Sequence record: PZ386974.1
Source of the DNA: a phage
DNA length: 64,000 nt
Strand: one strand, 5' to 3'
Shown: piece by piece, positions 1,323 through 63,860 of the stretch
Layout: every line of letters starts with the position of its first letter
How positions within the stretch are numbered: the first letter of the stretch is position 1
The notes under the pieces: model-generated
What the model was told of the DNA's origin: nothing
Seen by the model: the letters and a program-made list of their open reading frames with translations, nothing else
The model's database searches: none
Translations under genes and position numbers: made by a program

Positions 1323-1391
1323 TTTATTTCTCCAATTTGGGTGTTTTGTTTTGATAGGTCTATACTATCATGTTTGAAGCAAAAGTAAACT
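1314..1391 (-). repeat. 78 bp direct repeat copy A (promoter-leader cassette including first 9 nt of motA)
   Basis: Identical to 1635..1712 except one mismatch. Confidence 0.8.
1362..1390 (-). promoter_or_regulatory. early-type promoter cassette (GTTTAC-N17-TAGTAT) with flanking inverted repeat TGATAG/CTATCA
   Basis: Minus-strand GTTTAC at 1390-1385; -10 at 1367-1362; upstream of motA. Confidence 0.5.
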
Positions 1392-1427
1392 TTATTTTGG
1401 GCTCTTTTTCAAAAGCCCTGGTAAAAT

Positions 1428-1643
1428 TTACAAACTCATTTCTTTAATAAGGCTAATAAGTTTTGCCTTTTTAGAACGAAGCTTTTCTAAATGATGTCCA
1501 TTTGAACCGCGAACCACTAAAGAATTGATTTCAACTTCTAAGAAATTTAATTCTTCAACAAGTGCTTTACGTGGAGCATTCATACCAGGTTTAACTTTAC
1601 CGAAACGAGTAGTTGTGTTTTGGGTTAATTTCATTTTAGACAT
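1428..1643 (-). CDS. hypothetical protein (71 aa)
   Basis: ATG with GGAGA SD; shares identical 78 bp promoter-leader with motA. Confidence 0.5.
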   Translation of the reverse strand: MSKMKLTQNTTTRFGKVKPGMNAPRKALVEELNFLEVEINSLVVRGSNGHHLEKLRSKKAKLISLIKEMSL

Positions 1644-1712
1644 TTTATTTCTCCAATTTGGTTGTTTTGTTTTGATAGGTCTATACTATCATGTTTGAAG
1701 CAAAAGTAAACT
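1635..1712 (-). repeat. 78 bp direct repeat copy B (promoter-leader cassette including first 9 nt of 71-aa ORF)
   Basis: Identical to 1314..1391 except one mismatch; period 321 bp. Confidence 0.8.
1683..1711 (-). promoter_or_regulatory. early-type promoter cassette (duplicate of motA promoter)
   Basis: GTTTAC-N17-TAGTAT; upstream of 71-aa ORF. Confidence 0.5.
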
Positions 1713-1721
1713 GTTTTGTGA

Positions 1722-1752
1722 GAAAAATGCACAAAAGGGAGCCGAAGCTCCC
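1722..1752 (-). terminator. intrinsic terminator, UUCG-tetraloop hairpin GGGAGC/GCTCCC plus U-rich tail
   Basis: Stem 1737-1752, T-rich 1722-1736 on minus strand; downstream of gene 52. Confidence 0.5.
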
Positions 1753-1828
1753 TAATCATGTTTGTCCAACCAATACAGCCAAATCACTAGTACAGCTATT
1801 GCACCGAGAAATCCTAAGGCTAGGGCAC

Positions 1829-3154
1829 TCAAAGTGCCTCCAAGTCTTTAGTGTACTCGGTCACAACATCAGTAGACTTCCAATACTCATTTTCTTCTTT
1901 CTTAGCTTTAGCTTCTTCTGCTAGTTTACGTGCTTCGTCGGAAGTGATATGGAAGATGTTAAGACCTACCAGTTTATCGACATGTTCTTTATACATTTCG
2001 ATTTGTGCTAGCTCTTCAGTCAAAGCTTTACGAGTCTTGCCCTGAATCACAATTTCACCTGTAATAACTTTTTTGATGAAGTGTGCCTTAGCAAAAGCCA
2101 GTTTAAATGCTTTTTCAGATTCAAGGATTTTGTTGTCAATACGTTTCTGAACGTAAGTCTTACGGACTTCAACAAAATCTTTGATTAAGTCCACTACGTT
2201 ATCGTAGACAGCTAATTTACCCTTTTCATTAATCACTGTGATGTTTTGAGAACGGCGTTCGATGAGACTAAAATCTTTCATGATTTTTTCATGACGTAGC
2301 TCTTCATCATCAGGAAGCGAGTACTCTTTACGGAACTTCACTTTAAACCCAAAGCCGTGTTCACCACAATCATCTTCCCAAGAGATTAGACCTTTGTCTT
2401 CCAACGGGTCAAGAACCTTACTCACATACGTTTCACGGTCGAATTTATATGGGATTTCAGTTATCTGCATTTGAGTGCGAGATGTGAACTTATATGTTCC
2501 GTGAATCTCATAACGCCCATCAACTTCATGTACTTCACCACGGAATTCCGGGAATTCAACTTTTGGCTTAGTGACATTTTTACCTTGAAGAGCTTGTAAT
2601 ACAGCCTTTTTGACTGATTTAAAACTATGAGGCAGAATATTTGTTGCGTAACCGGTTGCAATACCAGAAACACCATTCAAAAGAACTGTCGGAATAATAG
2701 GAAGATAGAATTTTGGTGGAATGTGTTCTTTATCTTCATGAGCTGGAGCATATTCAGTATCTTTATATACGTTATAGAAATTTTTACTTACACGAGCAAA
2801 AATATAACGAGATGCTGCAGCTTTTTGGACTGTTCTAGAACCAAAGTTGCCTTGGCCATCTAACAGTGGATAGTTGTTGTTCCATGTGTTAGCCATCAAT
2901 GCACCTGCATCTTGTGCAGAAGATTCACCATGGTGATAACCTAAATCTGCAACACCACCTGCAATTGACGCAAGTTTATGAAATTTTTCTTTATTACCAC
3001 GAGCCAAATCTAACGCACGATGAACCACAAAACGTTGAACCGGCTTAAATCCATCAATCATGTTTGGGATTGCACGGTTTTCAACGGTGTACATCGCATA
3101 TGCTAAGGCTTCGTTATCAATAATACTTTTTAGATTACGAGAATTCAATTGCAT
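1829..3154 (-). CDS. 52: DNA topoisomerase II medium subunit (GyrA-like)
   Basis: 441 aa; N-terminus MQLNSRNLKSIIDNEALAYAMYTVENRAIPN matches recalled T4 gp52. Confidence 0.9.
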   Translation of the reverse strand: MQLNSRNLKSIIDNEALAYAMYTVENRAIPNMIDGFKPVQRFVVHRALDLARGNKEKFHKLASIAGGVADLGYHHGESSAQDAGALMANTWNNNYPLLDGQGNFGSRTVQKAAASRYIFARVSKNFYNVYKDTEYAPAHEDKEHIPPKFYLPIIPTVLLNGVSGIATGYATNILPHSFKSVKKAVLQALQGKNVTKPKVEFPEFRGEVHEVDGRYEIHGTYKFTSRTQMQITEIPYKFDRETYVSKVLDPLEDKGLISWEDDCGEHGFGFKVKFRKEYSLPDDEELRHEKIMKDFSLIERRSQNITVINEKGKLAVYDNVVDLIKDFVEVRKTYVQKRIDNKILESEKAFKLAFAKAHFIKKVITGEIVIQGKTRKALTEELAQIEMYKEHVDKLVGLNIFHITSDEARKLAEEAKAKKEENEYWKSTDVVTEYTKDLEAL

Positions 3155-3158
3155 ATTT

Positions 3159-3497: not shown

Positions 3498-3944
3498 TTA
3501 GTAACTCTGCAGAATGAATTTGAAATTATCTGCCAGAAGACGGTTCATTTCAGTGAGTGTTTGATATTCTGATGTATGGTTGCGAGTGAATGCCAGAGCC
3601 AATTGTCCTTTACCATAACCAGTAGTCAGTGGTTTCATGTTCTTAGCTGCAACAAAGATTACATCATATTCAATATTGTTAGTGCCCATGGTACGGGCTA
3701 GTTGCGAACGGCCTTGACGAATGTGAGAAAGAATTGCATCCAACCCTTGTTTAGAACGTTGACGTCCTACAAAGAATCGTGCTGCTACTTGTCGCCAATC
3801 AGATGAACCTTTAACAAAGAAGTAAAAACCTTCGCGAGAACGAAACTCTTTAGAAACTTCAGAACCGTATTCGCCATTACGAACTACTGCAACAACTTCA
3901 CCACCAACTGCCAGAAGGTCTTTACGAGTTAAATATTTGGACAT
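3498..3944 (-). CDS. ndd: possible Ndd nucleoid-disruption protein (148 aa)
   Basis: Size and position (clockwise of 52) match T4 ndd; ATG with GAGGAA SD; identity not verified by alignment. Confidence 0.4.
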
Positions 3945-3988
3945 GCTAATTTCCTCAATTGATTAATGTTTTTGTAATCCATGAGAGC

Positions 3989-4016
3989 ATTATACTCTGC
4001 TCTCAAGAGTTTGTAC
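3989..4016 (-). promoter_or_regulatory. early-type promoter (GTACAA-N-TATAAT) with inverted repeat GAGAGCA/TGCTCTC around -10
   Basis: Upstream of ndd-like ORF. Confidence 0.45.
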
Positions 4017-4020
4017 AATT

Positions 4021-4221
4021 TTATTCGGCTATATCAGAACGTTCAAAAAGCTCTTCAACAGTTAAACATTCAGTGTCATCTTCAATAAAGAATCGAGTCC
4101 AACACGTTGGGGCGATACAGTTATGAGTTTGTCCGGCGATAGAAGCTACACGAATAAGCTGCTGACCATTATTCAGAACAAATTTTTCACCAATTTCAAC
4201 ATCTTTAAAAAGCTTAGCCAT
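4021..4221 (-). CDS. hypothetical protein (66 aa)
   Basis: ATG with GAGGAA SD; own early promoter upstream. Confidence 0.45.
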   Translation of the reverse strand: MAKLFKDVEIGEKFVLNNGQQLIRVASIAGQTHNCIAPTCWTRFFIEDDTECLTVEELFERSDIAE

Positions 4222-4249
4222 TTTGTGTTCCTCGTGTTTCAGTAGGACT

Positions 4250-4279
4250 ACTATACCATAATCCTACCTTGATGTAAAC
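4250..4279 (-). promoter_or_regulatory. early-type promoter cassette (GTTTAC-N18-TATAGT), IR TAGGA.TA
   Basis: Upstream of 66-aa ORF. Confidence 0.45.
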
Positions 4280-13130: not shown

Positions 13131-13357
13131 TAGTAAGTTTCCTTCCAATAAGTTGTGCCGTTTTCAGTGATTTCACGGAAGATACCATAGATAGGCATTT
13201 CATCGCCGAGTTTTTCGTAAACGTAAACCACTTCGGTGTAGCATAAAAATTCGGTCCAGTTTTTCTGTACAACAACTAAATCAGGATTAAACAGAACATC
13301 TTCAAACTCATCAATGTTTGAATCAGTAGTTACGTTTTTAATGATTTGACGTTTCAT
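13130..13357 (-). CDS. hypothetical protein (75 aa; cef position)
   Basis: Track start at 13402 lies inside promoter element; ATG at 13357 with AGGAGA SD. Confidence 0.4.
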
Positions 13358-13385
13358 AATATTCTCCTCTTGTTTTGATAGGTCT

Positions 13386-13413
13386 ATAGTATCATAGGCC
13401 ATAGTTGTTGTAC
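13386..13413 (-). promoter_or_regulatory. early-type promoter cassette variant (GTACAA ... TACTAT AGACCTATCA)
   Basis: Upstream of 75-aa ORF. Confidence 0.4.
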
Positions 13414-13414
13414 A

Positions 13415-13939
13415 TCATTTTAGCAAAATAAAATCAACTTGTTCTGCCAATGAACGTCTAAACATTAATTGACAACTTCCGAGGATGAAATCAGGTGCTT
13501 CATAGACAGCGATGTAGTATCCTTTAGCTTTCAAGAGTTCAACATCCACCTGGTCATCAAACCATGCATAAACCGCGTCAACACTTTCAAATCCAAAATA
13601 GAACCCTTGAGCCCAATCTTCACTCAATTCAAATGTGTGCTCAATTCTATGGTATCTTAAGATATTTTGTTCAAGGAGTTTGTCTTCATTTACTGTAGGA
13701 CGATTAGGGACATTATAGTTGTCGCCGTGATGGTAGAAGTTACCTGAGATTATTCCGTGTTTATCAAGGAACTCCCATGTTTCTTCAGAGTTGTCGGTGC
13801 CAGACCAACCGTATGGCGAGCGAGGTTCTTTATTCCAAGAGGTTTCCCAAATTCTGACGGCTTTACCGTCTTCGATAGCAATTCCTGGTAATGATTCACG
13901 TTGAGTACAAAAACTACGTTCTACGCGGTAAACTAACAT
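13415..13939 (-). CDS. hypothetical protein (174 aa; motB position)
   Basis: ATG with GAGGAGA SD; own early promoter. Confidence 0.5.
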   Translation of the reverse strand: MLVYRVERSFCTQRESLPGIAIEDGKAVRIWETSWNKEPRSPYGWSGTDNSEETWEFLDKHGIISGNFYHHGDNYNVPNRPTVNEDKLLEQNILRYHRIEHTFELSEDWAQGFYFGFESVDAVYAWFDDQVDVELLKAKGYYIAVYEAPDFILGSCQLMFRRSLAEQVDFILLK

Positions 13940-13965
13940 ATTATTCTCCTCTGGTTGATAGGTCT

Positions 13966-13994
13966 ATAATACCAAAACCAGAGGAGAAGTAAAC
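13966..13994 (-). promoter_or_regulatory. early-type promoter cassette (GTTTAC-N17-TATTAT AGACCTATCA)
   Basis: Upstream of 174-aa ORF. Confidence 0.5.
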
Positions 13995-14427: not shown

Positions 14428-14892
14428 TTAAGCTTTACGAGGAGACACATAGCGAGTGATTTCAGATTCTTTAACAACTCGGAAGTCACCTAAGAATACG
14501 ATATTGTATAACTTTTCACCATCTTCAACCCATTGGTCACTAATGAAGCCACACATAGTATCAGTTTTGCTTGGATAACCGTATTCATCGATGAAGTCAA
14601 ATTCTTTATCGGTTATAAATTCAACGCCTTTGCAAAGGGCCCATTTGAACTGTGTAGTAGGCTCAACGATATCGCTTGAAGCAAAGTGGGCACTTACACG
14701 AGTTTCCAAGAATTTAGGACTTACATAGGCGAACTGAGTTTCAGTTTTTCCAGAACTAGGAATGATTCGAACTTTAACTTCTTTAATACGTCCCATGCCA
14801 TTTGTGCGAAGTCCGACAACTTCAACCAGACGACCTGCGGCTTTAGAACGGGATGCAGTTGATACACGCTTAATTTCACCAATATTAATCAT
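14428..14892 (-). CDS. hypothetical protein, tandem paralog family member B (154 aa)
   Basis: Start moved to ATG at 14892 by alignment with paralog A (MINIGEIKRVSTASRSKAAGRLVEV); track start lies in promoter element. Confidence 0.5.
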   Translation of the reverse strand: MINIGEIKRVSTASRSKAAGRLVEVVGLRTNGMGRIKEVKVRIIPSSGKTETQFAYVSPKFLETRVSAHFASSDIVEPTTQFKWALCKGVEFITDKEFDFIDEYGYPSKTDTMCGFISDQWVEDGEKLYNIVFLGDFRVVKESEITRYVSPRKA

Positions 14893-14923
14893 ATTTTTTC
14901 TCTCTTTGTTTAAATTGAATTCA

Positions 14924-14951
14924 TTATACTCCATCCATCCTTGGATGTACA
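14924..14951 (-). promoter_or_regulatory. early-type promoter cassette variant (TGTACA ... TATAAT)
   Basis: Upstream of paralog B; overlaps track-predicted N-terminal extension. Confidence 0.4.
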
Positions 14952-14954
14952 ACA

Positions 14955-15449
14955 TTAATTTAGAATATTAACCATAGCACTACGTGGAACTACACTAAAA
15001 TCACCTGCATGAACAACGTTCAGAAGTTCAACACCGTCTTCAATCCACTGATCAGTTACCCATCCACTCACTGGACCTGCGAACGGACGTCGAATTGAAA
15101 CAGCTTTACACAACAAATCAGTAGGCTCAATAGGCTTAATCAGAGTACCGTACATACAAGCGATATCCATATCAATACAGATGTCTTTAACGGGTTCTAC
15201 TTCTTCAATCAACAGTTCAAAGTCAGTGCTTGGAATGGCGGTAGTAGAAATTGTACCGTGTGAATTTTTAATTTCTAAGAATAACCAAGGGCCTTCAGCT
15301 TGTTTGATGAAGTTAACAATAGTGAAACTATTACCTTGAGTGGCACCTAAAATTTCACAAAACTTTTCATAAGCTCGCACTGAAGCACCGTACCAGTTGA
15401 TTTGTTTTTCGTCTTTCATGATGTAAGTAGCCGTAGTATTGATGTTCAT
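14955..15449 (-). CDS. hypothetical protein, tandem paralog family member C (164 aa)
   Basis: C-terminal motif WVTDQWIEDGVELLNVVHAGDF shared with paralogs A/B. Confidence 0.5.
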   Translation of the reverse strand: MNINTTATYIMKDEKQINWYGASVRAYEKFCEILGATQGNSFTIVNFIKQAEGPWLFLEIKNSHGTISTTAIPSTDFELLIEEVEPVKDICIDMDIACMYGTLIKPIEPTDLLCKAVSIRRPFAGPVSGWVTDQWIEDGVELLNVVHAGDFSVVPRSAMVNILN

Positions 15450-15480
15450 AATGTTTTTCCTGTTTGGTTAAGATAGAAAG

Positions 15481-15510
15481 ATTATACTCCAACCATCCTT
15501 GGTTGTAAAC
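15481..15510 (-). promoter_or_regulatory. early-type promoter cassette (GTTTAC-N18-TATAAT) with spacer hairpin CAACCA/TGGTTG
   Basis: 30 bp identical to 56985..57014; upstream of paralog C. Confidence 0.5.
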
Positions 15511-17826: not shown

Positions 17827-18573
17827 TTAACCTTTAATCAGTTGGAATAATGATGCGCTAAGTGGTAGGCCACGTTTCAATTTTAATTTACCAATGAAAC
17901 CAATCTTTTCAAAACGTTGCAGACCTTGGATAACTTTATCATATGTATCGAAAAGCGATTCAGCGTCAGTTAATTTAGTTTTAGTTTTCCAGTCAGAGCC
18001 TTTAAGAAGAACATTGAGTTTAGTAAGTTCATGGCCTTCTGCTTGATGTGAGCCATTAATGCGTGCTTTCAAAGCAACAATTCTAAGTTTAGATTCGTTA
18101 GATAAAGGTTGATTTTTCATCATGTTCGCCATATGCTTAACACGATTTTCACGTTTTGCTCGGATTTTTAAAATAGTGCCATAAACCTTTTTAATTTGGG
18201 CCCATTTCTTCTCGTCGAGATTAAGTTTCTCTACTTTACGGGCAGAAGGATTAGCGATACGTCTTGCAATGGCATCACGTTTCTCAATAAGTTCTTCTAA
18301 TGTTAAATCAGAACGAGCCGTGTTATATTTTTTCTTAACTGGGATGACATTACCTTTAATGTAGCCTATATCATTATTAAAACGTTCTAAGGATAATTTC
18401 TCACCTTCAACAGAGTTATTAAAAGATTCACCTGAGTAAGCGCAGACCTTTTGATCAAGAATGTTTTTAAGGTAATTAAAGTCTAAGTTAAAATCCTTAG
18501 AGCGTCTCTTCGCAGAAGCTCTGGTGTGGTCAAGACGACGATTGATTTTGTTAATTTTATTATTTGATAACAT
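17827..18573 (-). CDS. srd: Srd (sigma-70-like decoy/regulator)
   Basis: 248 aa; N-terminus MLSNNKI.KINRRLDHTRASA matches recalled T4 Srd; position between dda and mod genes. Confidence 0.65.
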   Translation of the reverse strand: MLSNNKINKINRRLDHTRASAKRRSKDFNLDFNYLKNILDQKVCAYSGESFNNSVEGEKLSLERFNNDIGYIKGNVIPVKKKYNTARSDLTLEELIEKRDAIARRIANPSARKVEKLNLDEKKWAQIKKVYGTILKIRAKRENRVKHMANMMKNQPLSNESKLRIVALKARINGSHQAEGHELTKLNVLLKGSDWKTKTKLTDAESLFDTYDKVIQGLQRFEKIGFIGKLKLKRGLPLSASLFQLIKG

Positions 18574-18622
18574 AATATTTTCCTCTGTCTTACGGACGTT
18601 AGGTCATTTAGCTGATAGGTCT

Positions 18623-18650
18623 ATAATATCATGCCCTCAGGTAGTGTACA
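18623..18650 (-). promoter_or_regulatory. early-type promoter cassette variant (TGTACA ... TATTAT AGACCTATCA)
   Basis: Upstream of srd. Confidence 0.4.
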
Positions 18651-18725
18651 CTCTTTTTTCGTAAAATGCTTTAATTTTTTATGTGTTATAATGGTTCTGA
18701 GTTCCATCCGGTTATTCCAATCCAG

Positions 18726-19334
18726 TCAGTAACTGACAATAGACAGATTCCAAATTGTATAACGTCCATCTTGAATAATAGAATCTACACGCAGTGTAGT
18801 CCCTATAGGGAGCATAAATTCACATTCGTCAGATATAAGTCTAGCATTAGACCGTCTTGTCGCTTCAGGGAAAGCTCCATTGAACTCACAAGATGGCGCA
18901 GCCAGAATCATGTTAAGCATATGTTCACGGAAGTTGAAAGCAAATGATGCATCTTTGATGCAGAACATATTAAATGTTCCATAAAAATTATATGAAGCGA
19001 AGTTACGTGCTACACCAAACACCGGACTAAAGCTCATTACTCTGTCAAATTTAATAATACTACCAATGCCTTTATCATCAAGTGTGGCCATAGTTTTCTT
19101 AGAGATTCCACGATACATTGTCTCAGGAACAGAAGACGTCCAATTTCTACGAACGATTGAACTTAACTCCTGTTGAATACAGTCTGGCTTGTTTTCCATA
19201 CACTGCCAAAGGATGCTTTGTTCATTATCGTTGAATTGACTATCAATTTCGTACTGCAATACATCTTGATATTCGGGGTTTTGAGCACGACGAACCATTT
19301 CTTCAATTTCACACTCGTTATACGGCATAAACAT
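18726..19334 (-). CDS. modA: ADP-ribosyltransferase, ModA-like
   Basis: 202 aa; R (YRG), S-x-S and E-x-E motifs; paralog of adjacent ORF; T4 order srd-modA-modB. Confidence 0.5.
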   Translation of the reverse strand: MFMPYNECEIEEMVRRAQNPEYQDVLQYEIDSQFNDNEQSILWQCMENKPDCIQQELSSIVRRNWTSSVPETMYRGISKKTMATLDDKGIGSIIKFDRVMSFSPVFGVARNFASYNFYGTFNMFCIKDASFAFNFREHMLNMILAAPSCEFNGAFPEATRRSNARLISDECEFMLPIGTTLRVDSIIQDGRYTIWNLSIVSY

Positions 19335-19362
19335 TTAGGTTTCTCCTCTGGTTGATAGGTCT

Positions 19363-19390
19363 ATAGTATCATCGTCCTTGTTGTTTGTAC
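19363..19390 (-). promoter_or_regulatory. early-type promoter cassette variant (GTACAA ... TACTAT AGACCTATCA)
   Basis: Upstream of modA-like ORF. Confidence 0.4.
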
Positions 19391-19391
19391 A

Positions 19392-19973: not shown

Positions 19974-20000
19974 GATAGACCTCCATTTAAAGATAAGCCT

Positions 20001-20029
20001 ATCATAACACGAGAGGAGGGAATGTAAAC
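20001..20029 (-). promoter_or_regulatory. early-type promoter (GTTTAC-N17-TATGAT)
   Basis: Upstream of modB-like ORF. Confidence 0.45.
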
Positions 20030-20189
20030 TACTTTTTAAGCTTTCCTACTAAAGGTCCATCAGGGCCAGGTTGTTCTAACATGAATAACGATGCTTTAAA
20101 AAGCAATGTCAACCCTTTCACCATTCGATACCATGTCTCAAAGTCTTTTTCCTTGATTTCTAGTAAGAATTTCTCTTTCAATTTCTCTT

Positions 20190-25333: not shown

Positions 25334-25362
25334 TTTAACTCCTTAGTTGATTTGATAGGACT

Positions 25363-48277: not shown

Positions 48278-48606
48278 TTTACCGCCTTAACAATTTTAAG
48301 GTCAACGAATTTTTTCTTACGTTGATTTTTCATACGACGGATAGTCTTTTCAGAGATTTCATGTTTCTGATAAGCTTTAGATTCAACACCAAATGCAGCA
48401 ACGTCAAATTCAGAAAGAATATATTGTACTAGAATTTCACGAATAGAATTACGTCCAATTTTCTGGTCGTGTTTTTGCATGATTTCGTAAAGACGGAATT
48501 CCCATGCGTCAAGAACTTGAGGAGTAACAATATTGCCAGATTCCAGAAGAGCAACAACTTTATCGAAAGCGAAAGAATTAACTACGTTTTTGATTTTAGT
48601 AGACAT
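48274..48606 (-). CDS. hypothetical protein (110 aa)
   Basis: Track ATG at 48645 lies inside promoter -10; ATG at 48606 has GAGGAA SD. Confidence 0.45.
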   Translation of the reverse strand: MSTKIKNVVNSFAFDKVVALLESGNIVTPQVLDAWEFRLYEIMQKHDQKIGRNSIREILVQYILSEFDVAAFGVESKAYQKHEISEKTIRRMKNQRKKKFVDLKIVKAVK

Positions 48607-48643
48607 ATTATTTTCCTCGGTTATTTTATTATCCAACGAGAGC

Positions 48644-48672
48644 ATTATACTCTGCTCCCAAGAGTCTGTACA
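48644..48672 (-). promoter_or_regulatory. early-type promoter variant (TGTACA-N17-TATAAT) with IR GAGAGCA/TGCTCTC
   Basis: Upstream of 110-aa ORF. Confidence 0.45.
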
Positions 48673-48912
48673 CTATTTTTTAAGCATGAAAAGTAAGTAA
48701 TTTGTATCACGTGGAGTAATATCAACACCCATATCAAAGATGCCTTTATAGATCGGGTATTTGTTTTCGGTTGTATCGAAGCTGAAACTATTTCCATCAC
48801 AACTAACAGTAATAGCATCTGTTAAAATGTCATACTCAATCCTAACAATTGAATCCCCAATTTTAACGTCGAGGTGTTTTTTGAATTTGATAAAATCTAA
48901 TTCTTGGGCCAT
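48673..48912 (-). CDS. hypothetical protein (79 aa)
   Basis: ATG; own promoter. Confidence 0.45.
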   Translation of the reverse strand: MAQELDFIKFKKHLDVKIGDSIVRIEYDILTDAITVSCDGNSFSFDTTENKYPIYKGIFDMGVDITPRDTNYLLFMLKK

Positions 48913-48943
48913 GATATTTTCCTCATTTTAAGACGATAGGAAG

Positions 48944-48972
48944 ATAATAACATGTCTTCCTATCGTTGTACA
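48944..48972 (-). promoter_or_regulatory. early-type promoter variant with IR GATAGGAAGA/TCTTCCTATC around -10
   Basis: Upstream of 79-aa ORF. Confidence 0.4.
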
Positions 48973-48975
48973 TTA

Positions 48976-49864: not shown

Positions 49865-50043
49865 GGCTTAATTTCCTTCGCAATTGAACAGAAGATACTA
49901 CGGTCACAAAGCATTTCACCAATTTCTGGATATTTGATTGAACGGTACCAAACATCCAGGCTTGAAACTCTGGTTATCTGTACTGCATTACCGTTGACAG
50001 AATAGTACTGGTCAACCTTAATTTCTTTATCTTCAATTGTCAT
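49861..50043 (-). CDS. hypothetical protein (60 aa)
   Basis: Track start is GTG with junk-like extension; ATG at 50043 with AGAGGAA SD. Confidence 0.4.
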   Translation of the reverse strand: MTIEDKEIKVDQYYSVNGNAVQITRVSSLDVWYRSIKYPEIGEMLCDRSIFCSIAKEIKP

Positions 50044-50209
50044 TTTGTTTTCCTCTGTGGTAGATGGTGCTAATCTTAACATATCTATCGAGGATGTAAA
50101 CTGTTTTATGAAAATATTTTTGATTTGAGAGGGGCACAAGGAGATAATGAAGTGAAGATTCCAATGGATTATATTAGAAATGAGATAAAGAAGACCAGGC
50201 GGCACCTGG

Positions 50210-54350: not shown

Positions 54351-54521
54351 TCAATATTCTCTATAAAAGTTACGATGAGAACGTTTAGCTTTGCGAAGCT
54401 GACGTTTAGTAGGACGAACTGTAAATGGTTGTCCAGAGAAAAAATTCGGATCGGTTTTAATAAGCAAATACCAATCATGCTTGCCATTTTTTAATAAACG
54501 GTACAATAATTTAACTTGCAT
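54351..54521 (-). CDS. hypothetical basic protein (56 aa)
   Basis: Track start is TTG; ATG at 54521 with GGAAGAG SD. Confidence 0.3.
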   Translation of the reverse strand: MQVKLLYRLLKNGKHDWYLLIKTDPNFFSGQPFTVRPTKRQLRKAKRSHRNFYREY

Positions 54522-54822
54522 AATAATCTCTTCCCATTTCCATATCAATTAATTCATTTATTGAAGGTTCATCATAACACGTTTCTTCGTCGTTGTAAAA
54601 TGTTTCGACGTCTGGCTCGACCGTCTCCCATCGAGCCGAATACCACGGTTTAACCGCGGAGCTTATTGAGCTCTTCATAATCAATCCAGGATTCTAGTCC
54701 GGATGGTAAAGCCGATTCAATTTCCCAAAGAAGCTCTTCAATTTTTTGAAGACGATCTAATTCTTCAACAGGAATAGTAACCATTGATGGAGCTCTTGCT
54801 GCACTAATATCGTAAATCATAT

Positions 54823-55704: not shown

Positions 55705-56009
55705 TATAATGTTCTCTCAAATTTGTGGAAGCATTTACGGCATTTCAATTTCAAGTTATCACTGGTCCAGTTAACCAGTTGGACTTGGATAGTTCCACAT
55801 TCTGGGCATGGGTGTTTTGCTGCCGATTTGGCAGCATTTTCACGTCGTTCAACCATTTTCATTATTTCGTTCCATGCTGGAGGAACGAACTCTTCTTCAC
55901 CATGAATTTTATCTCGCTGAACAAATTCAATCTTTGAACTATCATCAATAAACTTAACTAAGCCATGATTAGTGCTCATATCAATATCCTCTAGAAGACG
56001 TAGGTTCAT
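55704..56009 (-). CDS. zinc-ribbon protein (101 aa)
   Basis: CPECG...CRKC pairs; TAATG-coupled. Confidence 0.5.
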   Translation of the reverse strand: MNLRLLEDIDMSTNHGLVKFIDDSSKIEFVQRDKIHGEEEFVPPAWNEIMKMVERRENAAKSAAKHPCPECGTIQVQLVNWTSDNLKLKCRKCFHKFERTL

Positions 56010-56956
56010 TATAACACCTCAATGGCATTTCGTAAACCATCCGCTTTCGCGTTCAGAGCTTTTAACGATTTAGTCTGTTCTTTAATCTGGGCTTCGACTT
56101 CTTTAAGACGAGATTTGAGATATTCACGTTCTTCGCTCAAGTTGTCAACTTTTTCTACTTTAGGTTCTTTAATAGTCTTAAGTTTATACTCGTTAGGGTT
56201 CTTCAACTTAATTTGAATGCGAGAACTGAATAACATCGAACCGTTATCTTCGGTTTCGTCATACATTTCTACTACGTCCATGATTCTTAACATCATGCGA
56301 AGTTTATAAGACAGCGAACGAACGGTTTTATTGTGCTTCTTAATTTCTTCAGCTTTCATGGTGCCGAGATTACGTGAGTAGTAATAAGGAACCTGGATAT
56401 CAATTGACAATGATGCGTTACCATTACCTGTTGGTTTGAATACTGCAGTAACCCAATCTTTAACATGAACTTTATTTGTACGATCATCGCCACCAGTGAA
56501 TAATTTACGAGAATGTTTAAAAAGCATATTCACTTGGTTATTGAATTCACAAGCAAATTTATCAGCAAATTTAGTTTCAGGAATGGTAGATAACCAATCA
56601 GCCAAATGAGTCTTTTTAACATCATTAACAATAGTGAATTCAACCAAATCGGTTTTAGATGTCACAGATTTAATAAAGCTCGGCTTCATAAAGTTTTTAA
56701 TGTTATCGCGAGCTACAGTAGAAGATAATAAACGAGAACGTTTGAACCATTGAAGCAGCGTCCCTAATGAATGAGAATATGCATTTTGAGTATCTTTACA
56801 GATATGATTTTCTTGGCCTGTGTATGTAAGAAAATCACGAAGAATACTATAAACCACACCTTTATGTGGAACATCAGTCCAAGCACCAGTAGCACGTTGA
56901 GCGTGAGCGTTAGCGATAAGACCGGCAAAGTATTCAATGTAATGTGAACGTGTCAT
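56009..56956 (-). CDS. hypothetical protein with C-terminal coiled coil (315 aa)
   Basis: ATG; own promoter cassette. Confidence 0.5.
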   Translation of the reverse strand: MTRSHYIEYFAGLIANAHAQRATGAWTDVPHKGVVYSILRDFLTYTGQENHICKDTQNAYSHSLGTLLQWFKRSRLLSSTVARDNIKNFMKPSFIKSVTSKTDLVEFTIVNDVKKTHLADWLSTIPETKFADKFACEFNNQVNMLFKHSRKLFTGGDDRTNKVHVKDWVTAVFKPTGNGNASLSIDIQVPYYYSRNLGTMKAEEIKKHNKTVRSLSYKLRMMLRIMDVVEMYDETEDNGSMLFSSRIQIKLKNPNEYKLKTIKEPKVEKVDNLSEEREYLKSRLKEVEAQIKEQTKSLKALNAKADGLRNAIEVL

Positions 56957-56984
56957 AATATTTTCCTCTCGTTAAGATAAATTC

Positions 56985-57014
56985 ATTATACTCCAACCAT
57001 CCTTGGTTGTAAAC
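56985..57014 (-). promoter_or_regulatory. early-type promoter cassette (GTTTAC-N18-TATAAT), spacer hairpin
   Basis: 30 bp identical to 15481..15510; upstream of 315-aa ORF. Confidence 0.5.
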
Positions 57015-57018: not shown

Positions 57019-57978
57019 TTATGATTTTAACGCATTCATTGCGTTAAAAAGTTTAGAATACTGCAACTGGAGATTCGTTACAACACTTTGAGCATCACGA
57101 AGCTTAGCTTGTGCTTTGTCAAGTTCAACAGACAGTTGGTCCATAGTGGCCTTGATTTGATTGTAATGGTAATCTTCGACCGGAAGAAGGTCATTAGAAA
57201 CATTTAGTTTTACTGCAGACAGTTTGCACACATTTGGCAAACCTTTAAACATTGATTTACCCGAAGTAGAATAAGCACTTAGGACTTCGGCCTGTTCAAT
57301 TGGGGTCCCAGTAAGCGATGCTTCAAACGTTGCATTTTCCTTTTTAAGATTTTGATAATATTCGGAGTCTTTGTGCCACCATGGCGCAGGAACCTTTTTA
57401 CCAATAGATACACGAGCCTGGATAGCGATATGGCCCTTATTCTTGATAGGGTTGATAATATTAAGCTCACGAGAATAAATTGCTTTAATCTGGTGGATAT
57501 TATCACCTAACACTTCCAATGCTTGGTGGAATACACGAGCAACGTTATCATTCTTAGGTTTATACGTAAGAGTGAACTCATTCTCACTGATAACCATGAT
57601 TTCCAACTTATCGTAAGTATATTTCAAATGTTTCATGTTAATTGCTTGAGGACGAATACGAGAAGCAATGGCCATCAGATTGTTAAGGTTATTCCGGAAC
57701 TGCTTAGCGAAATATTGACCTTCACCGCCAATACAAAAATTACGAAGTTTCTGTTTGGCCAATAAACGGCTGAACTCACCATTTTTAATGAACTCTTTAA
57801 CGGGTGTGTTAGTAACGCATTCAAATTGGGTAAACATACGAGAAGTAATCCCATAATATGAACAGATTTCCTCAATCTCTTCAGGAGTCTTTACAGGCAT
57901 ACGGATAGGATTAGGTCCTGGAGTATATGCGTTCGAGGTAAATTCTTTGATAAGTTCTCTACGTGTAATAAAAGCCAT
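57019..57978 (-). CDS. hypothetical protein with C-terminal coiled coil (319 aa)
   Basis: ATG; own promoter cassette. Confidence 0.5.
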   Translation of the reverse strand: MAFITRRELIKEFTSNAYTPGPNPIRMPVKTPEEIEEICSYYGITSRMFTQFECVTNTPVKEFIKNGEFSRLLAKQKLRNFCIGGEGQYFAKQFRNNLNNLMAIASRIRPQAINMKHLKYTYDKLEIMVISENEFTLTYKPKNDNVARVFHQALEVLGDNIHQIKAIYSRELNIINPIKNKGHIAIQARVSIGKKVPAPWWHKDSEYYQNLKKENATFEASLTGTPIEQAEVLSAYSTSGKSMFKGLPNVCKLSAVKLNVSNDLLPVEDYHYNQIKATMDQLSVELDKAQAKLRDAQSVVTNLQLQYSKLFNAMNALKS

Positions 57979-58004
57979 TTTATATTCCTCATGTTGAAAA
58001 ATTT

Positions 58005-58034
58005 ATTATACTCCAACCATCCTTGGTTGTACAT
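58005..58034 (-). promoter_or_regulatory. early-type promoter cassette variant (TGTACA ... TATAAT), spacer hairpin
   Basis: 28/30 identical to 15481..15510; upstream of 319-aa ORF. Confidence 0.45.
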
Positions 58035-59091: not shown

Positions 59092-59619
59092 TTATGCGTG
59101 AACCGTCTTTAAACGTTCTTCAAATTTCCGAAGAGTACTAATACGTTCTGCTTTCTGTTTTGTATAGTTTGCAATACGTTCCGAAGTGAGAGCGTATCGT
59201 TCGTTTACTGTTTCTTTCATGAAGTCAGGGATTTCACGAGAAGCTTTAATTTCATCAAACTTATCGAGTACTGCCTGGTCTTCAGCGATTAAATTTTCGT
59301 ACATCTCGATATCTTTCTTAATAAACTCGATATCTTCCTGGGTTACTTTGGATAAACGAGATGCTTTATCCTTTTTGTACTGCTCGTTAGTTTCACGAGA
59401 CCAGAATAATGTACGGTTTTTGTTAGTGTTTTTGTAGACTTCCACAATTCCAACTGAATCGATGATAACAATCCAATTCCAGCGAGATTTGAAAATCTGA
59501 CCTCCATCTACGGTAATCTCGTTACCATAAGCAACGTCATTAAAGAACTTGCTTTGTGCTTCAGATTTAAATTTACCGTCGTTATAATTTACCAGGTTGA
59601 AAATATCTTTAGCGTTCAT
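59092..59619 (-). CDS. hypothetical protein (175 aa)
   Basis: ATG; own promoter cassette. Confidence 0.5.
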   Translation of the reverse strand: MNAKDIFNLVNYNDGKFKSEAQSKFFNDVAYGNEITVDGGQIFKSRWNWIVIIDSVGIVEVYKNTNKNRTLFWSRETNEQYKKDKASRLSKVTQEDIEFIKKDIEMYENLIAEDQAVLDKFDEIKASREIPDFMKETVNERYALTSERIANYTKQKAERISTLRKFEERLKTVHA

Positions 59620-59646
59620 GTTTTACCTCCAGTAGTTGATAGGTCT

Positions 59647-59675
59647 ATAATAACATAACCATAGACCTTGTAAAC
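59647..59675 (-). promoter_or_regulatory. early-type promoter cassette (GTTTAC-N17-TATTAT AGACCTATCA)
   Basis: Upstream of 175-aa ORF. Confidence 0.5.
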
Positions 59676-59677
59676 AA

Positions 59678-60102: not shown

Positions 60103-61083
60103 TTATTTCAGTAAAGTTACTTCGGAGATTTCCTCCCAACCATCTTTATCAGTTGAAATAAAATCTGCTACATAAAGAGCCGTACGTAATGATACATTGC
60201 GAAGACGAGATACGTTAGCCTTCATCCAGGACAATGCTTTGTACGTTTCAGCATCAGTCAGACCACGTTTCTGCATCATGTCAGTAGATAATATTACGTC
60301 TTCAACTCGAACCATAATCTCTTCATTAGAGTGTACTCCAAGGTCGAGATACACTGAACGAGATACTAAAGCTTGAAGGTGTGGGGCAAGTTTCGAACCA
60401 CGTTCTAACTCTTTATCGATATCAACGTTTGTAATGAAAACGATAGTACCTTCAAACTCAAATTCTTTATCAATACCCTTATCATCAAGATAAGATGACG
60501 CAGTGCTCCAACAAACTTTGCGTTTATCTCCGGTATCTAATGCTGCTTTAAGAAGGTTCAAGATATCCATATCAGAGAATACATCAACATCGTCGATTAA
60601 GAGAACGCTGTCTGCATCACGGTTGAGCCAAAGTTGTTCGTAAAGGCCGATACCAGAGATTTTACCATTAATGCTTTTGTATTTGATGAAACCATTATCA
60701 TTAGCATTATTAAGTGCTTTATCCAGAGAATACGTCTTACCAATACCGGCTGCACCTGAAATGATGAGTGAACGAATTTTGCCATCGATAATGCCATTCG
60801 TCATCATGTTCATTACTTTAAAGCGTTTGTTGATACGAGTTTTCATATCTTCAGTGCTTTCAACAACTGCAACTGGTGATGTCTCAACTCCTTCCATTAC
60901 GATGTCTGATTTGAAGACCCATACTCCACGTTCAGAACCATCAATCATAACGAAAATTTTACCATCACCTAAGTGGGAACATTCAGGATTAAGCTTTGCT
61001 GGGAACCATGTCTTTGTGGCGACATAAGAACCAGAGATTTCGTTATTACGATAGATACCTTTTTTGATTTGAACGTTGAACAT
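60103..61083 (-). CDS. P-loop ATPase (AAA-like), 326 aa
   Basis: Walker A GAAGIGKT and Walker B LLIDDVD; start set to ATG at 61083 with GGAGAA SD. Confidence 0.6.
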   Translation of the reverse strand: MFNVQIKKGIYRNNEISGSYVATKTWFPAKLNPECSHLGDGKIFVMIDGSERGVWVFKSDIVMEGVETSPVAVVESTEDMKTRINKRFKVMNMMTNGIIDGKIRSLIISGAAGIGKTYSLDKALNNANDNGFIKYKSINGKISGIGLYEQLWLNRDADSVLLIDDVDVFSDMDILNLLKAALDTGDKRKVCWSTASSYLDDKGIDKEFEFEGTIVFITNVDIDKELERGSKLAPHLQALVSRSVYLDLGVHSNEEIMVRVEDVILSTDMMQKRGLTDAETYKALSWMKANVSRLRNVSLRTALYVADFISTDKDGWEEISEVTLLK

Positions 61084-61121
61084 TTTATTCTCCAATTTAC
61101 TCATTTCGTTTCGATAGGTCT

Positions 61122-61149
61122 ATAATAACATATCCTAAAAGCATGTACA
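61122..61149 (-). promoter_or_regulatory. early-type promoter cassette variant (TGTACA ... TATTAT AGACCTATCGA)
   Basis: Upstream of P-loop ATPase gene. Confidence 0.4.
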
Positions 61150-61177
61150 CTACTTTTTAAAAATATTTTAACCCCCT

Positions 61178-61201: not shown

Positions 61202-61483
61202 TTACTTATCGCACTTAGCAACATAATTAGGCATATCACAGAATACGGAGCGAGTAACTACTCGACCCTTTGACCATGCTTCAGTTGCTTGTCCGGCAGT
61301 GCTATTAATATAGCTTGATTTGATATTCTCAATACCCTGAGAATGTGATGCATTTACCGAACCGTTGGAAGGCCCAGAAGACTGGTTACCACCAGCTCCT
61401 GCACTACCGCTGGCTGCACCCGTGGTAGCACCAACAGAGAACGCCATCATTACTGCGAATAAACCAATTACTAATTTTTTCAT
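61202..61483 (-). CDS. secreted Gly/Ser-rich protein (93 aa)
   Basis: N-terminal signal peptide MKKLVIGLFAVMMAFSVGA; two C-terminal Cys. Confidence 0.5.
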   Translation of the reverse strand: MKKLVIGLFAVMMAFSVGATTGAASGSAGAGGNQSSGPSNGSVNASHSQGIENIKSSYINSTAGQATEAWSKGRVVTRSVFCDMPNYVAKCDK

Positions 61484-62504: not shown

Positions 62505-62974
62505 TTAGCCTTATATTCAAGAGTAGGACAGACTTTTTCTTTACGAGCTTTAAGGTATTCACCTATTAATGATTTCTTACGTTCAATAGGCGCAAGTCCA
62601 TTTTTAATTCGTTCTTGGTTTTGTGCAATGAGCTCAATTTCTTTATAATATTTTCTGTCGTTATATTTGTCTAACAACCAAGACGGACCAATTACCGCCC
62701 CGACAGCAATAAGAACCATTACTGATATTGTTAAAATGCCTATACCAATTGAAGCAGGAACTAATGTCCATAAACTACTAAAGACAAAGAATTTAGTTAA
62801 AATTTCTTGGCCAATGATTGCGGCACCTGCTAAAGTTGCAAATCCAACAATTGAAACAGCCAATACCGGAATAAACGTTTTCCAAAAATAAGCACATAAT
62901 GTTTTCGGACGATTCCATGTACTATTGAACGTGGCATAAATTTTAAAGTGCCAAGAGTTTTCATTGATAATCAT
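62501..62974 (-). CDS. membrane protein (157 aa)
   Basis: Multiple hydrophobic segments; ATGA-coupled. Confidence 0.5.
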   Translation of the reverse strand: MIINENSWHFKIYATFNSTWNRPKTLCAYFWKTFIPVLAVSIVGFATLAGAAIIGQEILTKFFVFSSLWTLVPASIGIGILTISVMVLIAVGAVIGPSWLLDKYNDRKYYKEIELIAQNQERIKNGLAPIERKKSLIGEYLKARKEKVCPTLEYKAK

Positions 62975-62983
62975 AATAATTCC

Positions 62984-63514
62984 TTATTTCAAAGTCGGGA
63001 TAATAGAATCGAGATAAGCTTTAAGAGCAACTGCTTCATCTTTGTCTAATGTAATGATATGTTGACGAAGGTCGTCAATTTGACGAATAACTACAACATC
63101 ACCGTCTTCATAAGAAGGATTAACGCTCAGGACTGTTGTATAGTCAGGGTTGTCCTGATTTGTAATAAAAGCATTACGACATTTAGCCCATTGAAGTTTG
63201 GCCTTTTTGGCTGTTTCAGATTCCATGAATTCTTTCACTTTAGCGACGAATGTTTTCCAATTATTAATAGAAAAACATTCGTCTTCTGTTTCGATATTAA
63301 CCCCACTATAAAGTCCGTGATAAAAACGAACTTGAAGGTCTTCATCAATGTTAATTACAGATGCATGGCCTGGTGGATTGAGTTTCAAAATCTTGTCCAG
63401 TTCCATAGGAAGAATAGTAACAGCATCATCTTCTTGCGTCAGAACGTAAGCATAACCGCGTTTTTCAATACATAAATCACCAAACAATTCAGTTGTTTCA
63501 ATTACAGTTTTCAT
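62984..63514 (-). CDS. hypothetical protein (176 aa)
   Basis: Track start is TTG; ATG at 63514 with GGTGA SD. Confidence 0.5.
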   Translation of the reverse strand: MKTVIETTELFGDLCIEKRGYAYVLTQEDDAVTILPMELDKILKLNPPGHASVINIDEDLQVRFYHGLYSGVNIETEDECFSINNWKTFVAKVKEFMESETAKKAKLQWAKCRNAFITNQDNPDYTTVLSVNPSYEDGDVVVIRQIDDLRQHIITLDKDEAVALKAYLDSIIPTLK

Positions 63515-63515
63515 A

Positions 63516-63695
63516 TTATTCACCAATTAAAGTTTCAACAAAATTCACCAAAGCATTCTGGCAAGCGTCAACCTGATTTTCATAAAAGTCTCCGTTATCA
63601 TTTACCGCATGATAAGCTACATCATTCAAATCTGAATCGGCTTCACGTAAGTCATGGATAAGGTCCATCAATTTATTAGCTTGTTCACGGGTCAT
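63516..63695 (-). CDS. hypothetical acidic protein (59 aa), below track threshold
   Basis: Translation MTREQANKLMDLIHDLREADSDL...; ATGA-coupled to upstream 36-codon ORF. Confidence 0.3.
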   Translation of the reverse strand: MTREQANKLMDLIHDLREADSDLNDVAYHAVNDNGDFYENQVDACQNALVNFVETLIGE

Positions 63696-63802
63696 TTTAC
63701 CATACTCGTTTCAATAAGATTCACTATGCCGTTTACCATGTTATAAGTAAACATCGGATAATTGTATTGTACTACAACATAAGCGATAAGCAAAAGTTTC
63801 AT
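63692..63802 (-). CDS. small hydrophobic peptide (36 aa), below track threshold
   Basis: ATG with GGAGAA SD directly downstream of promoter cassette. Confidence 0.25.
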   Translation of the reverse strand: MKLLLIAYVVVQYNYPMFTYNMVNGIVNLIETSMVK

Positions 63803-63830
63803 TTTGTTCTCCGTTCGTTTTGATAGGACT

Positions 63831-63860
63831 ACTATAACATAGTCCTATCAAGTTGTAAAC
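63831..63860 (-). promoter_or_regulatory. early-type promoter cassette (GTTTAC-N18-TATAGT), IR TAGGACTA/TAGTCCTA
   Basis: Upstream of small ORF chain and 176-aa ORF. Confidence 0.45.

Follow-up and report, generated by a model that had tools for sequence, protein, structure and literature searches.

The 64,000-nt stretch of phage record PZ386974.1 analyzed here—called the window in the following, by which we mean the whole stretch and not a single cassette—covers the early region of a T-even phage, and a promoter-like element that recurs along its minus strand is the subject of this study. With a 5-kb sample of the window, matches of 95–99% identity were obtained to more than 150 T-even phage genomes (top matches 98.4%), and in full-length alignments the window is 97–98% identical to Escherichia phage moskry (genus Mosigvirus) and 95–97% identical to RB69, the type phage of Mosigvirus. 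The genes comprise arn, motA, 52, ndd, denB, rIIB, rIIA, 39, the motB genes, dexA, dda, and srd, then modA/modB, 56, 61, imm, dmd, 41, uvsX, 43, 45, 46, 47, and 55, and finally nrdD, 49, and the nrdC cluster, with the end near tk; essentially all of them are on the minus strand. In our analysis, the repeated motif most likely represents the sigma70-dependent early promoters (Pe) of an RB69-like Mosigvirus, and to this account as a whole, including hairpins in and recombination between the promoter cassettes, we assign a probability of about 80%.

Predicted early promoters along the minus strand

A two-block weight matrix built from intergenic matches gave 28 minus-strand sites with a score of at least 16, but none on the plus strand and 0–1 in shuffled sequences. 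For the sites on which it was trained, such a matrix is circular; the comparisons with the other strand and with shuffled sequences nevertheless remain informative, and as the number of sites is far above expectation, a chance origin of the repeats was rejected. The relaxed pattern T[TG]TAC-N17/18-TANNNT has 34 matches on the minus strand versus nine on the plus strand, and the strict pattern GTTTAC-N16-19-TATAAT was found four times versus 0.11 expected, two of these being identical 30-mers. The core sequence TATAGACCTATCA occurs in exactly eight copies, all on the minus strand, and allowing up to two mismatches there are 14 copies versus 1.7 expected. A generic TTGACA/TATAAT scan of the window showed no enrichment (62 found versus 61.4 expected); as the DNA is AT-rich, such a sigma70 scan has no discriminating power, and the signal is a phage-specific extended motif. 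The 28 sites are listed here as predicted early promoters and are named in the text by their higher coordinate. Pe numbers refer to RB69, z is the fold z-score introduced below, and ORF, SD, UTR, and MFE stand for open reading frame, Shine-Dalgarno sequence, untranslated region, and minimum free energy.

1320..1390, minus: cassette 5' of motA; RB69 Pe:162713; left copy of an 86-nt direct repeat (family D5); GTTTAC, 17-nt spacer, TGA-TAGTAT, AGACCTATCA, and a UTR with the RegB-type SD GGAGAAATAAAATG
1641..1711, minus: second cassette copy, 95% identical to 1390, 5' of a 71-aa ORF at 1428..1643 (phrog_6200); UUCG terminator hairpin AGGGAGCttcgGCTCCCT at about 1736-1753, directly upstream
3942..4018, minus: early promoter 5' of ndd; RB69 Pe:165022; 8-bp stem TGAGAGCA/TGCTCTCA (4005-3998 / 3989-3982) around the -10 TATAAT
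4219..4279, minus: early promoter 5' of ndd.1; RB69 Pe:165283; z -3.4; 11-bp stem GGTAGGATTAT/GTAGTCCTACT (4268-4258 / 4251-4241) with the -10 TATAGT in the loop
4733..4791, minus: early promoter 5' of the RB69ORF270c homologue; RB69 Pe:165795; z -2.3; 10-bp stem GTAGGACTAT/GTAGTCCTAT (4779-4770 / 4763-4754)
13355..13415, minus: early promoter (ATGTAC variant) 5' of cef; RB69 Pe:6863; AGACCTATCA block, no significant stem
13937..13994, minus: early promoter 5' of motB.2; RB69 Pe:7443; z -4.9; 13-bp hairpin TTCTCCTCTGGTT (13988-13976, -29..-17) / AACCAGAGGAGAA (13956-13944, +4..+16) with the SD buried and the predicted start site between the two arms
14890..14952, minus: early promoter (TTGTAC) 5' of motB; RB69 Pe:8387; spacer palindrome ATCCA-AGGA-TGGAT
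15447..15510, minus: early promoter 5' of a motB.1-like gene; RB69 Pe:8947; spacer palindrome AACCA-AGGA-TGGTT
18571..18651, minus: early promoter (GTGTAC) 5' of srd; RB69 Pe:12088; AGACCTATCA block, 43-nt UTR
19332..19392, minus: early promoter (GTGTAC) 5' of modA; RB69 Pe:12829; AGACCTATCA block, no stem
19971..20029, minus: early promoter 5' of modB (19392..19973); RB69 Pe:13466; z -2.1; 11-bp hairpin TATGATAGGCT (20006-19996, -12..-2) / GGTCTATCATG (19981-19971) with the AUG and part of the SD buried
21450..21510, minus: early promoter 5' of mrh.2; RB69 Pe:14950; upstream terminator hairpin AAGGAATCCttcgGGATTCCTT, then a T-run
25331..25392, minus: early promoter 5' of sp (spackle); RB69 Pe:19020; 10-bp stem GATGGACTAT/GTAGTCCTATC (25380-25371 / 25364-25354) around the -10
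25643..25703, minus: early promoter 5' of imm; RB69 Pe:19331; no stem (MFE 0)
26073..26133, minus: early promoter 5' of imm.1; RB69 Pe:19761; the end of the gene 61.4 deletion (26154) is about 20 nt upstream of the -35
26647..26704, minus: early promoter 5' of the RB69ORF040c homologue (then dmd); RB69 Pe:20537; z -6.3; 14-bp hairpin TTCTCCAGTAGTTG (26698-26685) / CAACTACTGGAGAA (26667-26654) with the SD buried
27077..27138, minus: early promoter 5' of the RB69ORF041c homologue; RB69 Pe:20971; 9-bp anti-SD pairing TTCCTCTAGG/CCAAGAGGAA; GGAGACttcgGTCTCC hairpin directly upstream
48604..48673, minus: early promoter (GTGTAC) 5' of 55.2; RB69 Pe:42515; 7-bp stem GGGAGCA/TGCTCTC around the -10
48910..48973, minus: early promoter (ATGTAC) 5' of the RB69ORF075c homologue; RB69 Pe:42816; z -3.9; 13-bp stem ACGATAGGAAGACA/TATCTTCCTATCGT (48966-48953 / 48946-48933)
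50041..50101, minus: early promoter 5' of 55.6; RB69 Pe:43945; z -3.4; 5-bp anti-SD TCCTC/GAGGA
54519..54600, minus: weak promoter-like site (TTTTAC), partly within an ORF; score 18.5; RB69 Pe:48639
55977..56037, minus: weak promoter-like site over the end of nrdC.3, 5' of nrdC.2; score 17.4
56954..57014, minus: early promoter 5' of nrdC.3; RB69 Pe:51019; palindrome AACCA-AGGA-TGGTT; twin of 15510
57976..58034, minus: early promoter (ATGTAC) 5' of nrdC.5; RB69 Pe:52042; spacer palindrome as at 57014
59617..59675, minus: early promoter 5' of nrdC.8; RB69 Pe:53683; 11-bp stem AGGTCTATGGT/ATTATAGACCT (59668-59658 / 59651-59641)
61081..61150, minus: chimeric early promoter 5' of nrdC.10; parts of RB69 Pe:55296 and Pe:55018
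63800..63860, minus: early promoter 5' of a 36-aa ORF and tk.1; RB69 Pe:57689; z -5.8; 13-bp stem TTGATAGGACTAT/GTAGTCCTATCAA (63851-63839 / 63832-63820)

Each cassette begins with an A/T-rich UP-like region (72% A+T upstream of the -35 versus 63% for the window, a modest enrichment), followed by the -35, the spacer, an extended -10, the start block AGACCT-A(+1)-TCAA, and a leader with a RegB-type SD GGAGAAnAAAATG. The -35 is GTTTAC in 18 of the 28 sites and xTGTAC in nine, the spacer is always 17 or 18 nt long, and TG is present at -15/-14 in 20 sites (TGn-TAnnnT). The -10 hexamer places the predicted +1 at the A of AGACCT-A-TCAA. All sites are on the gene strand and are followed downstream by an SD and a start codon, with predicted 5' UTRs of 20–43 nt. 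The features of an early promoter are thus found together: a -35, spacer, and -10, an A/T-rich upstream region, and an orientation 5' of an early gene.

An earlier note on this DNA is partly borne out by these data. It had described more than 20 minus-strand sites with a GTTTAC or TGTACA-variant -35, a 17–18-nt spacer, and a TATAAT-like -10, and the 28 sites agree with this, as does the given range, with the first site at 1362-1390 and the last at 63831-63860. The two copies noted as identical (15481-15510 and 56985-57014) are indeed the same 30-mer and are 92% identical over 50 nt (family D4). The sites were taken to be intergenic, which holds for about 26 of them, whereas 56037 and 54600 each reach into the 3' end of the ORF upstream. 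What had to be abandoned is the view that in most cases a TGATAG/CTATCA inverted repeat encloses the -10, as only two sites, the duplicated 1390 and 1711, have TGATAG beside the -10. CTATC is present in 16 of the 28 sites, where it belongs to the conserved start block at -6..+5 (AGACCTATCA, variants AGTCCTATCA and CTTCCTATCG). Since this block is present with or without a complementary arm, CTATCA is mainly a start-site consensus and not a hairpin arm.

For RB69, 58 early promoters have been predicted, with coordinates in the supplement and with a GTTTAC -35, A-rich positions -40..-44, and C favored at -3..-1 (Nolan et al., 2006, Virol J 3:30). When each cassette was mapped onto RB69, 27 of the 28 sites came to lie 12–15 nt from the 5' end of an RB69 Pe, which is the fixed offset of the 51-nt model used in that study, and a sub-threshold site at 49398 likewise maps to one RB69 Pe. 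Site 56037 is absent from the RB69 list, and the T4 GenBank and RefSeq records, which we examined for a cross-check, contain no promoter features. Because 27 of 28 sites coincide with the 2006 predictions, early promoters at these positions are, at the level of sequence, established knowledge, and the T4-type early promoters that the earlier note had placed ahead of small genes are thereby confirmed as orthologues of a predicted set.

The cassettes precede small early genes, mostly of unknown function. Nine of ten ORFs searched are cassette-associated, and all are in PHROG families of unknown function; the tenth, with 54 aa (20029..20193), lies upstream of a cassette. The 21.5-kb block of core replication genes from 27138 to 48673 contains no site (P about 9e-5); it comprises genes 41, uvsX, 43, 45, 46, 47, and 55 and corresponds to the RB69 gap between Pe:20971 and Pe:42515. 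Host RNA polymerase would fire the cassette promoters directly after infection, and each small early gene would then be represented by its own transcript and by read-through RNA from upstream promoters. The cassettes can therefore be used as a ready map of about 28 predicted independently transcribed early units. As to the opposite strand, we noticed a single plus-strand ORF of the window with an annotated counterpart in relatives (RB69ORF029w, moskry_49), namely 22446..22643, which lies between genes 56 and 61.

Inverted repeats and a possible translational gate

For structure analysis, the sense strand of each site was folded from the -35 to the ATG, and z-scores were calculated against dinucleotide shuffles. 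The z-score is below -2 in nine of the 28 sites, with a mean of -1.3. Spacers pair better with their own -8..+6 region than with the corresponding regions of the other sites (permutation p<5e-5), and also better with their own UTR than with other UTRs (p=0.005 by stem length, 0.04 by energy). Site-specific inverted repeats of this kind, which vary in sequence and register from site to site, are found in about half of the cassettes, and four classes can be distinguished. In class 1, the spacer is paired with the start region and the -10 is in the loop (63860 and 48973 with 13 bp, 59675 and 4279 with 11 bp, 4791 and 25392 with 10 bp, 4018 with 8 bp, 48673 with 7 bp). In class 2, the spacer or discriminator is paired with the SD or AUG (26704 with 14 bp, 13994 with 13 bp, 20029 with 11 bp including the AUG, 27138 with 9 bp, 50101 with 5 bp). 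Class 3 consists of a 5-bp palindrome within the spacer (15510, 57014, 58034, 14952), and class 4 of a canonical UUCG-type terminator hairpin upstream of the -35 (3–5 of the 28 sites). An Rfam search gave no match anywhere in the window at or above the family gathering score. On the plus strand, the antisense of -10-flanking hairpins (4755-4778, 13381-13400) was flagged as terminator-like, a T-rich tail being provided by the complement of the -35 region.

Pairing is maintained in several comparisons. Site 4018 reads ACTCTTG-AGAGC-AGAGTATAAT-GCTCT, and the T4 promoter 7215 upstream of motB reads ACTCTTG-GGACC-AGAGTATAAT-GGTCC, so that GAGAGC/GCTCTC of the window and GGGACC/GGTCCC of T4 occupy the same register with compensatory changes. 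Between 14952 and three relatives, the only two spacer differences are mutually complementary (AACCA..TGGTT versus ATCCA..TGGAT), and an IMG/VR orthologue of 63860 (L112) has GGTAGG/CCTACC where the window has GATAGG/CCTATC, an A:T to G:C exchange. IMG/VR was scanned with the pattern GTTTAC-N17/18-TATAGTAGT, and matches followed by an SD and ATG were regarded as promoter-like; stems of at least 6 bp are present in 11 of 22 promoter-like matches, but only in 5 of 74 chance matches (Fisher p=1.8e-5).

The position of the hairpins relative to the predicted start site suggests a consequence for translation, and the functional effects described in this section are all predictions. In every hairpin-bearing cassette, the 5' arm is upstream of the predicted +1, which lies between the arms or inside the 3' arm. 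RNA from the cassette's own promoter would therefore be unable to form the hairpin, and only RNA initiated further upstream could do so. Read-through of this kind is a major route by which prereplicative genes of T-even phages are expressed (Hinton, 2010). At 13994, 26704, 20029, and 50101, the predicted probability that the SD is unpaired is 0.00–0.06 in read-through RNA versus 0.35–0.71 in the own RNA.

The arrangement at motB.2 was followed through relatives found by an alignment-based search (a search for the locus with a single protein gave only three close relatives), using per-lineage folds and a matrix of each 5' arm against the 3' arm of every lineage. In four lineages, the predicted folding energy is -16 to -24 kcal/mol for the read-through RNA and about 0 for the +1 RNA. 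The arms are TTCTCCTCTGGTT/AACCAGAGGAGAA in Mosigvirus and TTCTCCTCATG/CATGAGGAGAA in JS98-like phages, T4-like phages have a 17-bp stem with the -10 in the loop, and Klebsiella-type phages have GATGACCTC/GGAGGTCATC in a different register that buries the AUG, too. With the exception of two closely related Klebsiella-type sequences, the own arms are the best or near-best partners in each lineage. The hairpin arrangement at modB is common to the window and T4, where the equivalent arms are GATAGCTTC/GGAGGCTATC, and at ORF040c an anti-SD TCTCC directly follows GTTTAC in several T-even lineages, being TCCTC where the SD is GGAGG.

We tentatively propose, as a possibility that our folding models suggest, that motB.2, modB, ORF040c, and perhaps others are controlled by an "own-promoter-only" translational gate, in which an anti-SD/anti-AUG arm is located within the early promoter. 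In this SD-burying class, to which ORF041c and 55.6 would belong more weakly, read-through RNA would be silent in translation, whereas the own transcript would be unstructured and translatable. Synthesis would thus be limited to the first minutes of infection, and the polycistronic RNA would stay intact for downstream genes. The -10-flanking class (ndd, ndd.1, ORF270c, sp, ORF075c, nrdC.8, and the tk.1 leader ORF) has its hairpin 4–25 nt upstream of a free SD, and an RNA insulator, an attenuator, a 3'-end stabilizer, or a neutral by-product are candidates for its role. The gate may also bear on cleavage by the endoribonuclease RegB. T4 motB.2 is a documented substrate of this enzyme, which secondary structure inhibits (Durand, 2006). 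The leaders of 1390, 1711, 61150, 13994, 26704, and 63860 end in GGAGAAnAAAATG (e.g., 1320-1345, 13937-13950, 26647-26660, 61081-61100), and because RegB needs single-stranded GGAG, read-through RNA with a buried SD would probably be RegB-resistant as well.

Recombination joints in and around the cassettes

The window and RB69 differ by seven structural changes of at least 30 nt (window coordinates):

1392-1712: 321-bp module found in the window but not in RB69; crossover within the cassette of an early promoter
61143-61517: replacement that lacks RB69ORF102c; crossover likewise within the cassette of an early promoter
26154: gene 61.4 missing; adjoins early promoter 26133 on one side
about 21830 (21830-21873): indel between soc and 56; adjoins a late TATAAATA promoter
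53936: ORF087c missing; adjoins a late TATAAATA promoter
54789-55035: replacement, 245 nt in the window versus 214 nt in RB69; junction elsewhere
59932-60102: extra stretch, 169 nt in the window versus 27 nt in RB69; junction elsewhere

The 321-bp module on the minus strand consists of the 71-aa ORF and one cassette and is located between the 86-nt direct repeats, which are 95% identical (family D5). We found the module in 76 phage records, and it is missing from many others, including RB69, moskry, and other Mosigvirus genomes. Its 71-aa ORF has the leader and the first codons (MSK) in common with motA. The cassette at 61150 is a chimera whose terminator, -35, spacer, and -10 are those of RB69 Pe:55296 and whose UTR is that of Pe:55018, with the join in the shared TGTTATTATAGACCTATC. 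Since the cassettes resemble each other, stretches of about 40–90 nt could serve as short homologies through which recombination adds, deletes, or swaps small genes, as in the promoter early stem-loop (PeSL) model, and the two crossovers inside cassettes are, as judged from the alignments, direct examples of this mechanism. The cassettes would in this way explain the presence or absence of small genes among Mosigvirus isolates.

Some further observations concern the same places. The segment that replaces RB69ORF102c encodes a 93-aa ORF (61202..61483, phrog_2243) with a TATAAATA late-promoter-like sequence ahead. Gene 61.4 (204 nt), which is absent here, appears to be translationally coupled to dmd in RB69 and moskry. 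The indels at 21830-21873 (soc.1/soc.2-type ORFs) and 53936 end exactly at the soc and gene 49 late promoters in comparison with RB69 and moskry, and late-promoter junctions therefore also serve as indel boundaries. Within the extra stretch at 59932-60102, there is a weak promoter-like site at 59990 (score 12.2).

Alternative explanations and comparison with known systems

Several observations weigh against parts of our account. The +1 positions on which the gate depends are predictions from the position of the -10, and our search of the accessible literature for a start-site data set of T4 or RB69 gave none. At least eight of the 28 sites have no meaningful stem, and the -10-flanking hairpins are not conserved at orthologous genes of T4 and the window: sp has one in the window but none in T4, and conversely one is present at T4 promoter 20612, upstream of dmd, but not at the nearest window equivalent of that promoter, 26133. 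SD burial is not family-wide, as the mean probability of an unpaired SD is 0.299 with the own and 0.312 with foreign upstream segments (p=0.35), and this comparison over all 28 sites rules out SD burial as a general property of the cassettes. Short anti-SD matches (TCTCC/GGAGA) could also partly reflect a preference for a pyrimidine-rich spacer. The sense RNA fold is more stable than the antisense fold in 25 of 34 cassettes, with 63 versus 40 G-U pairs, but this set includes related sequences, and because these are not independent, the p-value is optimistic and the contrast only suggests that the structure acts at the level of RNA rather than DNA. With respect to shuffling, only three of the seven differences touch an early promoter, whereas two adjoin late promoters and two lie elsewhere; as about 25% of gene junctions carry an early promoter, this is no significant excess. 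Of the modular shuffling that the earlier note had suggested, the two joints inside cassettes relative to RB69 and moskry remain as support, whereas indels are not clearly concentrated at early promoters.

Other explanations of the stem-loops have to be weighed against RNA hairpins of the kind proposed here. The authors of the PeSL concept proposed that the stem-loops terminate or attenuate upstream transcription, and one phi1 stem-loop lowered lacZ expression as much as the rrnB T1 terminator (Arbiol et al., 2010). The UUCG-type hairpins with a T-run upstream of the -35 in 3–5 of our cassettes (1711, 21510, also 27138 and 61150) would agree with such a function. However, the phi1 stem tested was a G-tract/C-tract hairpin, unlike the stems of the window, and the promoter-internal stems of classes 1–3 are not followed by a T-run (U-tract), their tails being, for example, AACGAACG, CTTAAAAT, and GAAACACG. 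They are therefore not canonical intrinsic terminators, a candidate function that we rejected on this ground; their terminator activity is doubtful, and termination is an unlikely general explanation. It is quite unlikely that the stems are functionless products of templated (quasi-palindrome) mutation and of cassette copying between sites that persist neutrally. The cassettes have clearly spread as families, and the gain and loss of -10-flanking hairpins between T4 and the window would fit such an origin. Templated mutation, as in T4 rII quasi-palindrome mutagenesis, can moreover mimic compensatory change. What speaks for function is that the SD hairpin of motB.2 has been kept in four lineages with unrelated arms, and in another register in the Klebsiella-type phages, and that intermediates are G-U pairs and not mismatches.

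The inverted repeats might also act in DNA, either as cruciforms that open the -10 or as targets of endonuclease VII, whose cuts would create recombination hot spots. The -10 hexamer in the loop of several stems and the two recombination joints inside cassettes would be in line with this. Yet many stems need sense-strand G-T pairs, which are A-C mismatches on the other strand, in keeping with the greater stability of the sense fold, and promoters without a stem score equally well on the promoter matrix. Furthermore, both joints are in cassettes without a significant stem (fold z -0.3 to +1.1), the joint of 61150 being in the shared -10/start block and that of the 321-bp module unplaceable within the 86-nt repeat. 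We therefore regard an action in DNA as very unlikely. An operator for a dimeric phage protein that shuts off early promoters would be attractive insofar as the repeats overlap the -10 and +1 and the shut-off mechanism of T4 early promoters is not completely understood (Uzan and Miller, 2010). However, at least a third of the promoters lack a repeat, and the arms vary by site (GGACTA, GGAAGA, GGTCTAT, GAGAGC) while complementarity is kept, which argues for base pairing and not for sequence recognition. The palindromic operator was rejected for this reason and is highly improbable.

In conclusion, our findings mainly reconfirm T-even early promoters and PeSL-type modular shuffling, now in the RB69 group. 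If the translational gate is real, a hairpin interleaved with the promoter would separate the own transcript from read-through RNA in several early genes, and this would offer a simple, portable means of restricting proteins such as ModB, an ADP-ribosyltransferase, to a short period. It would also be relevant for the engineering of phage gene cassettes whose expression is independent of the insertion site.

The closest known counterparts are the RB69 early promoters (Nolan et al., 2006), with which the sites share the GTTTAC -35, the TGn-extended -10, the A-rich upstream region, and the C-rich positions -3..-1, as well as their orientation and their placement ahead of early genes and novel ORFs, 27 of 28 being positional orthologues. 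They differ in that the window has an additional, duplicated copy (1711) and a chimeric one (61150), that Pe:55018 has no separate counterpart in the window, and that site 56037 is missing from the RB69 list.

The PeSL cassettes, to which the earlier note had likened the sites, are a partial match. In phi1/RB49, the stems are mostly between the -35 and -10 or overlap the -10, and some are upstream of the -35 (Arbiol et al., 2010); PeSLs have also been described for PST/T4 and nt-1/KVP40, with an upstream terminator-type hairpin shown for T4/PST (Comeau et al., 2014). The composite layout of AT-rich region, early promoter, stem-loop, SD, and ATG is alike, as are the stem positions, the clustering in variable regions ahead of small genes of unknown function, and the joints within cassettes. 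Unlike in PeSLs, only about half of the window promoters carry a stem, the stems are not of the G-tract/C-tract type and mostly not of the upstream AGNA-loop-TCNT type of PST, the upstream terminator type being confined to 3–5 of 28 sites, and no internal stem has a U-tract. The PeSL papers that we examined contain no catalogue for the RB69 group.

The leaders resemble those of T4 early mRNAs, for which GGAGAAUAAAA has been reported as the 11-nt RegB/S1 target consensus, in that many window cassette leaders end in GGAGAAnAAAATG; the link between hairpins and RegB protection is one that we infer. For hairpins with an internal early promoter, our literature search turned up only the review by Uzan and Miller (2010). 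Such a gate is not listed in the reviews and papers that we examined, but older T4 literature may mention it. This review describes T4 e, soc, 49, and I-TevI, in which a promoter inside the 5' arm gives rise to translatable RNA, whereas longer RNAs are silent. Just as predicted here, the SD/AUG of these genes is paired in upstream-initiated RNA, and the own transcript lacks the 5' arm. However, their internal promoters are late promoters (gp55, TATAAATA) that delay expression until late infection, whereas the internal promoter of the window sites is an early sigma70 promoter, with a predicted effect that is reversed, as only the immediate-early transcript would be translated. For this reason, the window sites would work like the e/soc/49/I-TevI family but are not members of it, and the gate, if true, would be the mirror image of these late-promoter gates.

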